This document shows positions 3,522 to 10,020 of a stretch of 52,925 nucleotides of DNA, piece by piece. A program made the position numbers and the translations under genes. The notes under the pieces were generated by a model, which worked only from the letters and a program-made list of their open reading frames with translations, had not been told where the DNA came from and did no database searches. This stretch comes from a virus (taxonomy: Duplodnaviria > Heunggongvirae > Uroviricota > Caudoviricetes). Positions within the stretch are counted from its first letter, which is position 1. Every line of letters begins with the position of its first letter. The DNA is taken from IMG/VR virus record IMGVR_UViG_3300041409_000458, one strand, 5' to 3'.

Positions 3522-5200
3522 TGACTTATAATAATTGCGTAAAACAGGTAATAGAAGAATTAGATGCTCTCCCACAAGTGTGGGCAGAGAAGTTGGCATG
3601 TAATATATGCAGTTTGGTAGAAACTGAGGATGAATGTGCAACAACTTCGGACTGTCAGGATATCAGTGAGTGTGAGACAGTAACCTCATTAAGTACCTTT
3701 ACAGTAATTGATGACAAGATATGTATATCTTTCAAGGATGAAAGAGGAGTTACAGTAAAGCGTTGTTTTATAGCCTCTCAATTTACAGATGAGATAAACG
3801 AAACGGATGGTTTATGTATAGATTCGGATTGGAATACTTTCTCCTCAAAAGAGAAGTGGCAAGCAGTAATAGATAAAATCTGCAACTGCTGTAATCCAAC
3901 TACAACAACCACAACAACTTCTACCACAACAACTACCACAATACAAGAATGTCCTGATTGTTACACAATTAGATTCGTTAATCCGGATAATGAAGACCAT
4001 GATATTGATTATGTAAACTGTGATACCCTTAGTCCATCAAATATTACTCTTGGTGCAGGAGAAAGTGTAACTATTTGTGGATGTAGTGATAGTTTTGAGT
4101 ATGATAATGAAATTATAGCTGAGTTTATCAGTGACACTTGTAACGCTGAATCATGTGAGAGTTGCAATAAGTATACATTAATAAATAATTTAGATGAACC
4201 ACAGCAGATTCATTATATAGATTGTGCTACACAATTACCTGCATTTGTTTGGGTTCTTCCTAATGAAGAAACGATTATTGATTGTGCTTGTACTGATAGT
4301 GTTGTTATTCCAGACAGGAGTCCTGTTGAAATAATAGCTGTTGCTGACTGTGATGAAATAACTACTTCTACAACAACTACTACTACATTACCACCTTGTA
4401 GATGCTATAATGTTCAAAATCCGGGTGCTGTTGATAGGGTTCTTAATTACACAGATTGTGATGGTGATATACAACAGGAGGTTGTTCCTGCCGGAACAGG
4501 AGTACTCAGATGTGCTCCAAATGGTTTCATTAGTGGATTTGGATTAACTATCACAGACCTTGCTGCCTGTGCTGATATAGATGCTTGTAATAACGACCTT
4601 CTTACAACGACAACTACTACTACATCTACAACAACTACAACAACGGCAGCACCCACCACAACGACCACAACTACATCTACGACTACAATAACTACTGTTC
4701 CTATAGAGGAAGATATAGTATATTTCACCAATAGTCCTACAGTTGGAGATAGAGGTGCAATCGTATGGTTCTCAGCAAATGATTACTATACACCAAATAC
4801 TCCGGCTTCTTTAATACCAGCTAATTGCTTGAATATCAGTGATTTAGGACCTTCACCTGCTATTGAAATAGAGTTAAATTATTGGACAGATGATGATGAA
4901 GCTACAATTGATGATGGATTTGGAGACGTAAGAACACCTGATGGAACTAAGACAATTAATGTATCTACAGATTTATTAACATATAATGGAAGTAGTGGAG
5001 CTTGGCAGAGAGGAAATGGATTATTCACTTTACTTGAAGGAGCTAATATTGCAGCTTTTGAGATTACAAGTGTAACATCTGGTCTTACTTATAATGGAGT
5101 GAATCACCAGTTTAACTTACCACCAGCCAATCATTTTATAAGAGTTCATAATACATTCTCTGCAGGTGCAACAGGTGTAATATGGTTTGATTTAACATAA
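3521..5200 (+). CDS. Cys-rich, mucin-like poly-Thr repeat protein (probable virion decoration or fibre)
   Basis: Likely start is the ATG at 3521 (TAATG overlap; track start is 3470). Three poly-Thr tracts separate an N-terminal Cys domain, three ~60-70 aa Cys-containing repeats and a beta-rich C-terminal domain. Confidence 0.7.
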   Translation: MTYNNCVKQVIEELDALPQVWAEKLACNICSLVETEDECATTSDCQDISECETVTSLSTFTVIDDKICISFKDERGVTVKRCFIASQFTDEINETDGLCIDSDWNTFSSKEKWQAVIDKICNCCNPTTTTTTTSTTTTTTIQECPDCYTIRFVNPDNEDHDIDYVNCDTLSPSNITLGAGESVTICGCSDSFEYDNEIIAEFISDTCNAESCESCNKYTLINNLDEPQQIHYIDCATQLPAFVWVLPNEETIIDCACTDSVVIPDRSPVEIIAVADCDEITTSTTTTTTLPPCRCYNVQNPGAVDRVLNYTDCDGDIQQEVVPAGTGVLRCAPNGFISGFGLTITDLAACADIDACNNDLLTTTTTTTSTTTTTTAAPTTTTTTTSTTTITTVPIEEDIVYFTNSPTVGDRGAIVWFSANDYYTPNTPASLIPANCLNISDLGPSPAIEIELNYWTDDDEATIDDGFGDVRTPDGTKTINVSTDLLTYNGSSGAWQRGNGLFTLLEGANIAAFEITSVTSGLTYNGVNHQFNLPPANHFIRVHNTFSAGATGVIWFDLT

Positions 5201-5769
5201 TGATAGGGATATACAAAATAACAAGCCCTTCTGGTAAAGCCTATATTGGACAGTCTTGGAATATTCTTAAGAGGTTCATAGATTACAAATATTGTAATAA
5301 GGCACAGCGTTACATATATCATTCTTTGGCAAAACATGGGTATACAAATCATATATTTGAGATAGTTCATGAGCTTCCAGAGGACATAACACAGTCAATA
5401 CTAGATAGTTATGAACAATTGTATATTGATACACACAGGGATTGTGGGATAATTTTGATGAATATCAGAGAAGCTGGGACTGGAGGAAAACATAATGTTA
5501 GAACTAAGGAGTTAATGAGACTTGCATCATTAGGAAAACCTAAGTCGAAACAACATTGTATAAATAATGGTCTCGCAAAGAAGGGACAATATCCTAAATC
5601 AGCCAAGATAGTTGTTGACCTAATTACTAAGGAAATTTATCCTTCTGCTAGGGTTGCAGCTGACTCAATTGGAGTAACACATAGTACTCTAAAGAGTTAT
5701 TTAAATGGTACAAGAATAAATAAAACCAATTTACAATATGAACATAGCTATAACTTTGGTAGCAACTAA
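5200..5769 (+). CDS. GIY-YIG homing endonuclease (free-standing)
   Basis: GIYKITSPSGKAYIGQS motif, conserved E (SYEQLYI) and N (MNIREAG), C-terminal HTH/NUMOD1-like tail. Confidence 0.9.
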   Translation: MIGIYKITSPSGKAYIGQSWNILKRFIDYKYCNKAQRYIYHSLAKHGYTNHIFEIVHELPEDITQSILDSYEQLYIDTHRDCGIILMNIREAGTGGKHNVRTKELMRLASLGKPKSKQHCINNGLAKKGQYPKSAKIVVDLITKEIYPSARVAADSIGVTHSTLKSYLNGTRINKTNLQYEHSYNFGSN

Positions 5770-6510: not shown

Positions 6511-7455
6511 ATGATATATTTAAGTTGTCAGCCAGTGGATAGTTATTTCCTTTGGCAAGTAGAAGTACAGATTACAAATTTTCGTAAATTCGGAGTATCA
6601 GGAAAGATGCATATATTAGTTTGGTACCCTGAAAGAAGGGCTGCAGAACTGGAAGCATGGAGAGCTTTACAGGATAAATACCCGGAAACAAGATTCTTTT
6701 TTTATAAAGATGAAGGTGTTAATCTTGGATTATATATCTCTCAGCTTCGACCACATACTATAAAGAAGCATTTTGCAGCTATTCCGTCTCTCAAGAGAGA
6801 GACTATATTTTACCACGATAGTGATATAATATTCAATTATCTCCCTGATTTTGAGTCACTTTTGGACGATAATATCAATTGGCAATCAGATTGTTCAAGC
6901 TATCTTGATTACAATTACCTCAAGAGGAAAGAAAAGGAAGGTAATATTCCTGATGACGAAGCTGTAAAAATATTGGCTAATATCGGAAATATTCCGATAG
7001 AAGTCATTCAAAGTTACACAAATAAGACAGGTGGAGCTCAATGTATCCTCAAAGAAGTCGATTCAGCCTTCTGGTCCGATGTAGAAAGACAATGTATAGA
7101 GATAAGGAAAGCTTTCTGGTTTAATTCTCCTAACTCTATCAATAAAAAGTACTTTGAGAGTGAAAATAAGGGCTTTCAGAGCTGGTGTGCTGATATGTGG
7201 GCTCTTAACATGGCTTTGTGGAGTAGAGGAAAAATAACGAACGTAACACCACTTCTGGACTTCTCGTGGGCAACTTCAAGCATCGAAGAGTTTAATAAGA
7301 AGCCAATTTATCATAATGCCGGGGCAACCAAGGATAAATCTGAACTGTTCTATAAAGGAGATTGGATTCATAAATCTCCAATTGGTCAAGTTATTATCAC
7401 CAAACCTAACTCAGCATCCGAACAATATATCAAAGCTATACAAGAAGTAAAATAA
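6511..7455 (+). CDS. GT-A glycosyltransferase resembling plant peptide O-glycosyltransferases (HPAT/SGT1, GT95/GT96)
   Basis: Motifs in colinear order: SCQPVDSYFLWQ (cf. plant YFDWQ), YISQLRP (cf. INKP), FYHDSDIIF (DxD), GGAQ, WCADMWA (cf. WISEMY), IYHN. Confidence 0.65.
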   Translation: MIYLSCQPVDSYFLWQVEVQITNFRKFGVSGKMHILVWYPERRAAELEAWRALQDKYPETRFFFYKDEGVNLGLYISQLRPHTIKKHFAAIPSLKRETIFYHDSDIIFNYLPDFESLLDDNINWQSDCSSYLDYNYLKRKEKEGNIPDDEAVKILANIGNIPIEVIQSYTNKTGGAQCILKEVDSAFWSDVERQCIEIRKAFWFNSPNSINKKYFESENKGFQSWCADMWALNMALWSRGKITNVTPLLDFSWATSSIEEFNKKPIYHNAGATKDKSELFYKGDWIHKSPIGQVIITKPNSASEQYIKAIQEVK

Positions 7456-7502
7456 CGTACAGAATTATTTTAATATTTCAAATTTTTTAATTATATTATA
7501 TT

Positions 7503-8147
7503 ATGGCACTATTAGATACATTAAAGACGACAGGTGAAGTATTAGGTAGCGTTATAGCGGTGGGAACCATTATTTGGAAAACCTTTGCTAAGAAGTGGTG
7601 GAATAGATACAGAGCTTCGCTACATGCTCGCTGGGACAAGTTAACTGCGGAGTTAGCTTCTCAGAATAGGGAAATTGCATCTATTAAGCACATGCTTTAT
7701 CCGAATGGTGGTAGTAGCATGTTTGATACCCAAAGAAAAATGTTATCTCAAGTAGAAAGTGTCATATTAAAATTAAATAGCTTACAAGTATCCAACAGAA
7801 ATACTTGGGATATTTTGGATATTGCTTCATGGGAATCTGATAGTGAAGGTAGAATTACTTATGTATCAATAGCTTTTTGTGATTTGATTGGTGCATCACC
7901 TTTAGAGGTAATGGGAAATTCATGGGTAGGAAGAGTTGCTTCATGGGACAGGGATATGGTTGTAAAACTATGGAGAGAATCAGTAGCAAATGGCTCCGAA
8001 TTCATATTAGTACATTCACTAAGAAGAAATGATGGTAAATATCAAATGGTACAGCCAATCGTTATACACAATAAAGATAAAGATGGTAAAGTTTTAAATA
8101 GTTTGGGTAGGCTTCTGAAAATTGGAGAACCTTATATACACGAATAA
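7503..8147 (+). CDS. Membrane-anchored PAS-domain protein in lysis cassette
   Basis: N-terminal hydrophobic helix followed by basic residues, a coiled coil, the PNGGSS motif, then a PAS signature (WESDSEGRITYVSIAFCDLIGASPLEVMGNSW ... RRNDGKY ... DKDGKV). Confidence 0.75.
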   Translation: MALLDTLKTTGEVLGSVIAVGTIIWKTFAKKWWNRYRASLHARWDKLTAELASQNREIASIKHMLYPNGGSSMFDTQRKMLSQVESVILKLNSLQVSNRNTWDILDIASWESDSEGRITYVSIAFCDLIGASPLEVMGNSWVGRVASWDRDMVVKLWRESVANGSEFILVHSLRRNDGKYQMVQPIVIHNKDKDGKVLNSLGRLLKIGEPYIHE

Positions 8148-8569
8148 TGAAGAGAATTTTTAAATATATAGAACCTTTATGGCAGGGTGCAGATGGTAAA
8201 ATATCTGTAAGGTCTGCTTTGGCTATAGCCTTCTCTATTGATTTTATTCATAATTTATCTCATGCCATCTTTAAATGGGATGGTGGTAGAACTCTTGAGG
8301 GTTTATCACTAGTTCTTGGTATTGAAGCTGGTCTAATAGTAGCTTTATTAGGTTTAACTACTTATCAGAACATGGCAGCTCAGAAGATTGACAGTCTTGC
8401 AGCAAATCCTACAGCTCCTGCCATCACAATTGAGAAGGTTGAGAACGTAAATACAGCTACAAATACAACTACAGCTAAAACTGTAAATGCTGCTCAAGTA
8501 GATACTGTTAATACAACAAACACAAATATTACATCAAAAGTACAAATCGACAATCCAGATGGTCAATAA
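8147..8569 (+). CDS. Putative holin
   Basis: Two predicted TM segments. Lies directly upstream of, and overlaps, the endolysin. Confidence 0.6.
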   Translation: MKRIFKYIEPLWQGADGKISVRSALAIAFSIDFIHNLSHAIFKWDGGRTLEGLSLVLGIEAGLIVALLGLTTYQNMAAQKIDSLAANPTAPAITIEKVENVNTATNTTTAKTVNAAQVDTVNTTNTNITSKVQIDNPDGQ

Positions 8570-9011
8570 AGCAACAGTAGACTTAATTAAGTCATTTGAG
8601 GGTCTGGTTCTGAAAGCCTATGTAGACCCCGGAACAGGTGGTGAACCAATAACAATTGGCTATGGAACCACTATATATAAAGGTATTCAGAAAGTTAAAC
8701 TGGGTGATAGTATCACTCCAGAGCAAGCTGAAATGTTCCTGACATACGATGTTAATACTTTCTCTGAAGGGGTAAAAAAGCTGATAACCAAGAACCTAAC
8801 GGAAAATCAATTTGGTGCTTTAGTATCTTTTGCTTATAATGTAGGTCTAGCAAACCTCAAAAACAGTACTTTACTTAAGAAAGTAAATGTTAATCCAAAT
8901 GACCCAGCTATTGCAACTGAGTTTGGAAAGTGGGTAAGAGCAGGTGGAAAGGTGATGAATGGATTAGTTAGGCGTAGAAATGCAGAATCAATGTTATACT
9001 TTAAAAAATAA
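8559..9011 (+). CDS. Endolysin, GH24 lysozyme
   Basis: FEGLVLKAYVDP...TIGYG catalytic E-x8-D-x5-T pattern; ALVSFAYNVG; GLVRRR. Confidence 0.93.
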   Translation: MVNKATVDLIKSFEGLVLKAYVDPGTGGEPITIGYGTTIYKGIQKVKLGDSITPEQAEMFLTYDVNTFSEGVKKLITKNLTENQFGALVSFAYNVGLANLKNSTLLKKVNVNPNDPAIATEFGKWVRAGGKVMNGLVRRRNAESMLYFKK

Positions 9012-9053: not shown

Positions 9054-9971
9054 ATGAAAGACAAAGGTTTAGACATGGGTCTCATCAGAGAGTTGAACAC
9101 TTCTGAGAGAAACAAAAGAGGTTGGTCAAAGAACTTTTACGGATTCCGTAAGATGTTCCATTCCTATCTGAACAAATTGGAAGTTCCATTTTATGACATT
9201 TGTTGTGCAGAAGCCAGTGAAAATCCGGGTCCTGTACGTTTCAATGTTACAACTGGCTCTCTTGAGTACTTCAATGGTACTGCTTGGGTAGAAACAGTTG
9301 GTGGATTTGGTGCTGCTGCAACAGGTATAACAGCCTTTGCAGGTGGTGGTCAAGGTTCAGCTACAGCTCTAACTGCTGGTTATAATGAAGTTACTACTGT
9401 AGCAACAGCTGGTGACTCCGTTAAACTACCAACAGCTGCAGCCTCAACTGTAGTAATTGTTAAAAATGAAGGTGCTGCAGCAATGAATGTATTTCCTTTC
9501 TTGGGAGATACAATCAATGATGGTTCTGCGAATGCAGCTTATGCTGTACCAGCAGGTGCAACAGTTACTTTCGTAGCTCTGAATGCTACAAATTGGGAAA
9601 CAGATAGTGAACTCGTTATCGCTAGTGGAATTAAGAACTCCGCAGGAACAATGATTGCTGCTTTCTATCCTCAGGTAGCTCAGACTAACATTACTGCAGG
9701 TACAGGTGGTGCTATTCCAGTAACTAATTACCTAACTACAATTAATACCGATGCTGGTGGTGATGCTTTCACTCTGGCAGCTGGTACACAGGTAGGTCAG
9801 ATGAAGAAAATCCTTCTTGTGGCTGATGGTGGTGGTGATGGTGTTGTTACTCCTGCAGCTTTAGCTGCTGGTACAACAATTACCTTTAATGATGCAACAG
9901 ACTATGTAATTCTACAGTGGAATGGTGCAGCATGGGTAACATTAGAAAATTCTGGAACTACGATTGCGTAA
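9054..9971 (+). CDS. Probable virion structural / decoration protein
   Basis: Ala/Gly/Thr-rich beta-type repeats (GDSVKLP, GDAFTLAAG) in a late-gene context. Function not assignable. Confidence 0.5.
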   Translation: MKDKGLDMGLIRELNTSERNKRGWSKNFYGFRKMFHSYLNKLEVPFYDICCAEASENPGPVRFNVTTGSLEYFNGTAWVETVGGFGAAATGITAFAGGGQGSATALTAGYNEVTTVATAGDSVKLPTAAASTVVIVKNEGAAAMNVFPFLGDTINDGSANAAYAVPAGATVTFVALNATNWETDSELVIASGIKNSAGTMIAAFYPQVAQTNITAGTGGAIPVTNYLTTINTDAGGDAFTLAAGTQVGQMKKILLVADGGGDGVVTPAALAAGTTITFNDATDYVILQWNGAAWVTLENSGTTIA

Positions 9972-9982
9972 TCCTCCGTGAA

Positions 9983-10020
9983 GAAAAAGAAAAACCCTCC
10001 TAATTGGAGGGTTTTTTATT
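9983..10020. terminator. Bidirectional rho-independent terminator between convergent arms
   Basis: aaaaaccctcc-taatt-ggagggtttttt: a perfect inverted repeat with A/T tracts on both sides, where the + and - gene blocks meet. Confidence 0.9.

Follow-up and report, generated by a model that had tools for sequence, protein, structure and literature searches.

We propose, from a comparison of genomes, that P0001, a phage protein in which a predicted membrane anchor is joined to a PAS domain, may be an accessory and signal-responsive regulator of the phage's holin, acting in either direction, a reading to which we give an even chance. Its gene lies in a stretch of 52,925 nucleotides (hereafter the window), part of a 146.7-kb IMG/VR virus record with an estimated completeness of 76%, and is followed there by the genes of a small holin-like membrane protein (P0002) and of an endolysin (P0003). 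The features on which the argument draws are listed by their positions in the window.

7503-8147, + strand: P0001 gene, 214 aa, ATG start (listed open reading frame, translated)
7539-7589, + strand: N-terminal hydrophobic helix of P0001, residues ~13-29 (Kyte-Doolittle mean 1.68 over 17 residues, moderate)
7701-7718, + strand: PNGGSS motif, hairpin turn of P0001, residues 67-72 (sequence and AF2 loop 66-72)
7815-8135, + strand: PAS domain of P0001, residues ~105-211 (Pfam, AF2, Foldseek)
8147-8569, + strand: P0002, holin-like 2-TM protein, 140 aa (hydropathy, AF2, homology)
8559-9011, + strand: P0003, soluble GH24 endolysin, 150 aa (Phage_lysozyme 138 bits; phrog_7 endolysin 5e-47)
9989-10017, no strand assigned: strong bidirectional terminator-like hairpin (12-pair perfect GC-containing stem, T runs on both strands)

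The three-gene unit of the window

The stop codon of P0001 (TAA, 8145-8147) shares one base with the start codon of P0002 (ATG, 8147-8149) within a TAATG at 8145-8149, and the P0002 reading frame (8147-8569) overlaps that of the endolysin (8559-9011) by 11 nt; both overlaps had been described in an earlier reading of this DNA (the sequence-only reading). No terminator-like site was found inside the unit on the + strand, from 7455 to 9011, and P0001, P0002 and P0003 are coupled by the TAATG, the 11-nt overlap and the terminator-free interior. The spacer between the preceding gene and P0001 is 47 nt long and very AT-rich, and 5' of P0001 are a tail-fibre-like gene, a GIY-YIG homing endonuclease, a family-6 glycosyltransferase and a phrog_4417 protein. 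At the other end, the hairpin at 9989-10017 closes the + strand block, which ends with the lysis genes and an open reading frame at 9054-9971, and stands at the meeting point of this block with the converging block of - strand genes; it is likely a bidirectional terminator. A sigma-70 promoter scan gave no excess over the shuffled expectation, with a model that is probably not applicable to the host group.

There is no hydrophobic segment in P0003 and hence no signal or SAR sequence, and as the endolysin lacks an export signal, a hole-forming holin is needed for its access to the wall. The cassette encodes no small multi-TM protein other than P0002, which has the features of a holin, being small, with TM segments, a hydrophilic C-terminal tail and an adjoining endolysin devoid of an export signal, and we infer that it is the holin. 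Its hydropathy peaks lie at residues 24-42 (1.38) and 52-70 (2.19), and as the first of the two segments is only marginally hydrophobic, the topology and role of the protein are uncertain. AF2 predicts helices at residues 2-12, 21-44 and 50-86 and a disordered, N/T-rich polar tail at 95-140, and the protein has a single Met start, with no further Met before residue 76. Against Pfam and PHROGs, P0002 matched no holin family, the only hit being DUF2570 at 20.6 bits, under the cut-off of 26.6; its Atlas neighbours are unnamed viral proteins, none of its 135 detected relatives is named, and tblastn of its N-terminal part found no match in deposited phage genomes. In those 2-TM relatives whose two TM segments are both strong, the tail should lie in the cytoplasm together with the basic N-terminus.

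Architecture and family of P0001

The C-terminal half of P0001 scores above the gathering cut-offs of three Pfam models, PAS_3 (32.2 bits, cut-off 25.6), PAS (28.3, cut-off 22.6) and PAS_4 (24.1, cut-off 23.1), at residues ~105-211. AF2, run with a 39-sequence family alignment (mean pLDDT 93.2), models residues 105-211 as five strands and four helices with a pLDDT of about 97. Foldseek against the PDB returned PAS/LOV domains only, namely LOV, FixL (1d06), NifL (2gj3) and hERG PAS (E about 1e-8 to 1e-7, TM-score by target 0.65-0.78, probability 1.00), a profile search of PDB sequences matched the PAS domains of MmoS and ARNT, and 38 of the 39 relatives match PAS_3. As P0001 ends 3 residues past the PAS domain, it carries no output domain. 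A complete PAS fold with nothing behind it is what the sequence-only reading had seen, and the identity of the C-terminal domain, on which that reading had staked its case, stands by Pfam, by the relatives and by Foldseek alike. A fold like that of the T4 holin T was also considered for P0001 and was rejected, as Foldseek yields PAS domains only. Outside the P0001 family, the best PAS-domain matches are the PAS repeats of long multi-PAS proteins.

The NCRFL-like motif of LOV domains (GxNCRFLQ) occurs nowhere in the 214 residues of P0001. Its sole cysteine, C126, belongs to the first PAS helix (123-129), where it stands within AFCDL, and not to the later helix of the LOV motif, and the family-conserved segment that corresponds to the LOV-motif region reads GNSW. 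The proximal His of heme-PAS domains of the FixL type is absent from the predicted F-alpha helix (residues 147-163). LOV and heme sensing by P0001 were both rejected, since the signature residues are missing. With neither a LOV cysteine motif nor an F-alpha His, no cofactor can be inferred for P0001, and for this reason the claim of sensing rests on the general behaviour of PAS domains.

The hydrophobic helix of the N-terminal part is preceded by 12 residues of net charge -1 and followed by a net charge of +5 in 15 residues, in agreement with the N-terminal TM and basic patch recorded from the sequence before. Among the 39 relatives the Kyte-Doolittle hydropathy of the anchor runs from 0.68 to 2.86, all but two lying within 1.4-2.9; the N flank is short and neutral or acidic, and the next 15 residues carry a net positive charge, mostly +3 to +7, with a single exception. 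The positive-inside rule, applied family-wide, supports the prediction of a single-pass anchor, N-out/C-in, with the hairpin and the PAS domain in the cytoplasm, and thereby favours, as a prediction, the cytoplasmic placement of the domain that had been set against the periplasmic T4 RI.

In the AF2 model of P0001 a continuous helix (2-65) is followed by a loop (66-72) and a second helix (73-104), which together would form a helical hairpin of ~90 residues. The PNGGSS motif, already noted from the sequence, is the turn of this hairpin. The consensus of the turn across the family is PNGGxSxxD, with S72 and D75 conserved in at least 90% of all 39 members, and in the close set of relatives P67, G69, G70, S72 and D75 are invariant. 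Over the whole family alignment S72, D75, W110, G116, W141, W157, F167 and V183 are invariant or at least 90% conserved. The phage family phrog_9869 (98 residues) weakly matches the turn-motif region in 13 of the 39 members (best E 8.9e-6), with P0001 itself below threshold; it has the NGG.S..D turn region in common with P0001 and differs from it in having no PAS domain, and no function is annotated for it. These matches suggest that the N-terminal module may occur on its own in phages too. A search with this module alone (residues 1-104) returned close relatives only, an Atlas search with the same residues returned generic long-helix look-alikes only, and a phrog_9869 search of the phage's own genome gave nothing, control genomes being matched non-specifically at E<=1.

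An exhaustive profile-free search with P0001 found 4688 library proteins at E<=0.001, most of them long multi-PAS proteins that match the PAS part only. About 35 of the matches (cluster representatives, 190-235 aa) are full-length relatives, seven closer ones are 50-90% identical to P0001, and the family alignment holds 39 members. Given 4688 matches, the full-length relatives among them and the conserved motif, the P0001 reading frame is not a product of chance. Searching 50,697 deposited phage genomes by tblastn with P0001 and its divergent relatives P0081 and P0100 gave no match, blastn of the region against deposited sequences matched nothing but a stretch of 8%, in a metagenomic phage that bears no annotation, an IMG/VR scan with the PAS-family alignment gave no relative, and a metagenome scan for the family gave two loci only. 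As the family is missing from deposited phage genomes, it has so far gone unstudied; in the literature on PAS domains together with antiholin, holin, endolysin or lysis timing we found only unrelated papers and no published account.

The PAS gene in related cassettes

The loci of the closer subfamily are the window and ten others (L001-L008, L010 and L011), whose P0001 relatives are about 30-90% identical. In 11 of these 11 loci, which come mostly from related soil or sediment phages, so that the adjacency is partly inherited and not independently evolved, the PAS gene directly abuts the gene of a small protein (61-153 aa) with at least two TM segments. The arrangement varies among them as follows.

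Multi-TM partner downstream of the PAS gene: window, L002, L004, L006, L007, L008, L010, L011
Multi-TM partner upstream of the PAS gene: L001, L003, L005
Endolysin near the pair, window and L006: GH24
Endolysin near the pair, L002: Amidase_3
Endolysin near the pair, L003: Peptidase_M15_4, past an inserted homing endonuclease
Endolysin near the pair, L004: GH25
Endolysin near the pair, L008: NlpC/P60-like (21.1 bits, below the cut-off of 23)

As the partner is upstream in some loci and downstream in others, the pair of PAS and 2-TM genes survives rearrangement. In L001, L003 and L005 the PAS gene is followed by a gene for a 208-258-aa protein with an N-terminal TM. The endolysins found within three genes of the PAS gene belong to four or five different classes, and since the pair persists through both the change of order and the swaps of endolysin, it is tied to lysis and not to one enzyme. 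The 2-TM partners of L002 to L006 are homologous to one another and, by profile-profile comparison, to P0002 (hhalign, 98.5%, E 3e-15); in L008, L010 (92 aa) and L011 (61 aa) the partners are small 2-TM proteins of other kinds. The link of the homologues to lysis genes, on which the sequence-only reading also depended, is thus seen by synteny as a neighbouring multi-TM gene in every locus of the closer subfamily. Of the relatives examined, that of L023 (27% identity) is the most divergent, and it has soluble neighbours, with no adjacent 2-TM gene and no evident lysis genes.

Several other genes recur in these cassettes. A family of 208-223 aa (L012:4507-5178, L015:993-1649, L001:6639-7265 and L005:1675-2307) stands before the holin-like gene in some loci and after the endolysin in others. 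In its members an N-terminal TM that ends in Cys is followed by a stretch rich in P and Q, a short coiled part and a C-terminus rich in beta structure; the L012 member weakly matches Porin_4, and a related 258-aa protein of L003 weakly matches an Rz-like spanin. These proteins may be a one-piece spanin for envelopes of the Bacteroidota type. The genome record of the window, complete to 76%, yielded no counterpart of the spanin-like protein of the related cassettes. The gene directly 3' of the endolysin (window 9054-9971; L002:7702-8013; L004:6731-7717; L015:2546-3226; L003:4327-5187) encodes a protein with a conserved N-terminal part of ~80 residues that includes a CC pair, followed by a variable region, which in L002 is a pure poly-Thr run. 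Homing endonucleases lie in or beside the cassettes, of the GIY-YIG type at 5200-5769 of the window and at L003:3213-3785 and of the Endonuclease_7 type at L005:2304-2741, the L003 insertion being placed between the spanin-like gene and the endolysin.

In L012 the PAS domain and the membrane anchor are on separate proteins. A P0002 ortholog of 67% identity is followed there by an Amidase_3 and a spanin-like protein, and is preceded by a 98-aa protein of TM and coil and by a separate, soluble PAS protein of 158 aa (PAS_9, 30.4 bits, cut-off 27). No relation of this soluble protein to P0001 is detectable by BLAST or by the family HMM, and the 98-aa protein is the best non-family match of the HMM of the N-terminal module, though a weak one (E 0.009). 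Relatives of P0002 are also found with no PAS gene nearby, in L013, L015, L016, L017 and L022, where other small membrane proteins occupy the neighbouring slots; in L015 the P0002 relative is followed by a GH24 enzyme. Since relatives of P0002 occur without the PAS protein, the latter is a dispensable accessory of a conserved core of holin-like protein and endolysin. By analogy with the known antiholins, which are dispensable, such an accessory distribution would be that expected of a timing regulator.

The PAS-less cassettes have membrane proteins of their own. After the P0002-like gene, three or four extra small membrane proteins are encoded at L013:3876-5790, L016:3866-4958 and L017:3823-4751, among them a lipoprotein-like one with a C-terminal TM (L013:4210-4557) and one of 225 aa (L013:5113-5790) that has a TM segment at either end of a long coiled middle part; we regard them as candidates for spanins or additional partners of the holin. 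In L015, a 94-aa protein (L015:507-791) encoded three genes upstream of the P0002-like gene combines an N-terminal coiled coil with a C-terminal TM, a layout which we take to resemble that of XhlA.

The tail of the 2-TM proteins carries a motif, AETVNAxxVxTVNTQNTNI, that recurs at 8430-8566 of the window (P0002 ~95-140) and in the tails of L002-L006, L012 and L015, and so is common to two branches of the 2-TM family that have otherwise diverged very far. It occurs together with the fused PAS protein (window and L002-L006), with the split one (L012) and once with no PAS protein (L015); in the other PAS-less relatives of P0002 the N/T-rich tail is short or absent. We regard this tail as a candidate docking site for the PAS protein. 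A complex prediction for P0001 and P0002 from their own alignments scored 0.00 against a mark of 0.32, with the partner poorly folded, a score that weighs on neither side of the question of binding.

Proposed function, alternatives and significance

The sequence-only reading of P0001 as a regulator of lysis stands as regards the PAS fold, the lysis-cassette adjacency and the predicted cytoplasmic side, and is weakened in that P0002 falls in no holin family. As is the case for a holin regulator, P0001 is encoded in a lysis cassette beside a holin-like gene, overlapping it in the window and abutting a multi-TM gene in each of the 11 loci. In the mechanism that we propose, P0001 would be made together with P0002 and the soluble endolysin, and its single N-terminal helix would anchor it in the inner membrane, the short N-terminus outside and the helical hairpin, with its PNGGSS turn, and the PAS domain in the cytoplasm. 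It would most likely associate with P0002 through the membrane helix, the cytoplasmic parts of the holin or both, and the state of the PAS domain, set by a bound ligand or by a redox or energy signal, would decide when P0002 forms holes, lysis being either delayed, as by an antiholin, or released. By analogy with known antiholins we have a slight preference for inhibition. As the soluble PAS protein of L012 is unrelated to P0001 by our searches and stands in the same slot, it is conceivable that PAS sensors were recruited into lysis cassettes at least twice, once fused to an anchor and once soluble, and gate the holin by a signal from inside the cell, for example redox state, energy charge, oxygen or a metabolite, a wider reading that we hold tentatively, at somewhat less than an even chance.

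Two-component holin systems have a second membrane protein, as XhlA with XhlB in PBSX, and P0001 could be such a structural co-holin or accessory subunit of the membrane lesion, with the PAS domain serving mainly for oligomerisation and not as a sensor. PAS domains commonly dimerise, that of P0001 bears no cofactor signature, P0001 is always beside a 2-TM protein and translationally coupled to it, and the PAS-less cassettes have other small TM proteins in the adjoining slots, all of which would fit a subunit. However, relatives of P0002 function in cassettes that have no PAS protein at all, a full and well-conserved PAS fold would be an elaborate route to a dimer, and an unrelated soluble PAS protein in the same slot of L012 suggests selection for PAS itself. 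We consider a purely structural part for P0001 unlikely.

It is also conceivable that P0001 has nothing to do with lysis and is a late-expressed membrane PAS protein that manipulates host signalling, for instance as a decoy that heterodimerises with multi-PAS sensor kinases of the host, or acts in superinfection exclusion, and that in both cases only rides along at the end of the late operon. The ends of late operons often gather accessory genes, the closest PAS domains outside the family are repeats of long multi-PAS proteins and the divergent relative in L023 is not beside obvious lysis genes, as this explanation would have it. The constant adjacency to a multi-TM gene despite inversion of the order and swaps of endolysin class, the overlap of the P0001 stop and P0002 start codons, and the independent PAS protein in the same slot of L012 all argue against it, and we hold it to be quite unlikely. 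That P0001 is itself the main holin, built of one TM and a large globular domain on the formal pattern of T4 T (218 aa, one TM plus a large domain), and P0002 its regulator or a second holin, is very improbable: size (214 aa) and layout do resemble T4 T and P0002 matches no holin family, but the predicted orientation is opposite, with the globular domain cytoplasmic, the fold is PAS, and Pfam, PHROG and Foldseek show nothing similar to T4 T, and cassettes with a P0002 relative and a soluble endolysin, such as that of L015 with its GH24 enzyme, lack P0001.

As a putative holin regulator P0001 may be compared with three kinds of known systems. RI and RIII of T4 are, like P0001, separate and dispensable proteins encoded with the lysis genes, and binding of the holin and timing set by a signal would be further likenesses if our proposal holds; RI also has an N-terminal membrane segment, and RIII acts on the cytoplasmic side. 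Neither has sequence or fold similarity to P0001 or a PAS domain, RIII is small and soluble, and RI has a periplasmic sensing domain and a releasable SAR anchor, whereas the globular domain of P0001 is predicted to be cytoplasmic. P0001 does not qualify as a protein of the RI type, as its Pfam and PHROG matches are to PAS only and the charge distribution places the C-terminal domain, by prediction, in the cytoplasm for almost all of the 39 members. The signal of RI and RIII is superinfection, whereas the PAS domain of P0001 suggests an intracellular ligand, redox or energy cue.

The second comparison is with S107 of lambda and S71 of phage 21, regulators made from the holin's own transcript, which keep the holin from acting before a change of membrane or energy state, as P0001 may do. 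These are holin isoforms made from an alternative start, with an extra charged N-terminus, whereas P0001 is a separate gene with a sensor domain. Bacterial PAS sensors (Aer, and the PAS domains of FixL and NifL) have the same fold as P0001, with a cytoplasmic PAS domain held at the membrane, and read oxygen, redox or energy status. Unlike P0001, they have an output (a kinase, a HAMP/signalling domain or a partner regulator) and a cofactor (heme or FAD), and the presumed output of P0001 would be the neighbouring membrane protein.

For phages, the timing of lysis sets the burst size and is a trait central to fitness. To our knowledge, the known regulators of lysis timing read superinfection, as in T4, or else, by way of the holin itself, the membrane potential, and the novelty suggested by our comparative genomics would be a holin regulator with a sensor-type input. 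If this is true, phages read the physiology of the host directly, through a cytoplasmic sensor on the holin system, when timing their burst, and the family would represent a lysis clock of a new class, gated by a signal and different from the superinfection sensing of T4 RI/RIII and from isoform antiholins. PAS proteins that lack an output would likewise gain a function, with a membrane pore-former as the effector. The sensor, the holin-like protein and the endolysin would make up a small, defined and testable module of three genes, from which a ligand-switchable lysis device for synthetic biology could follow.
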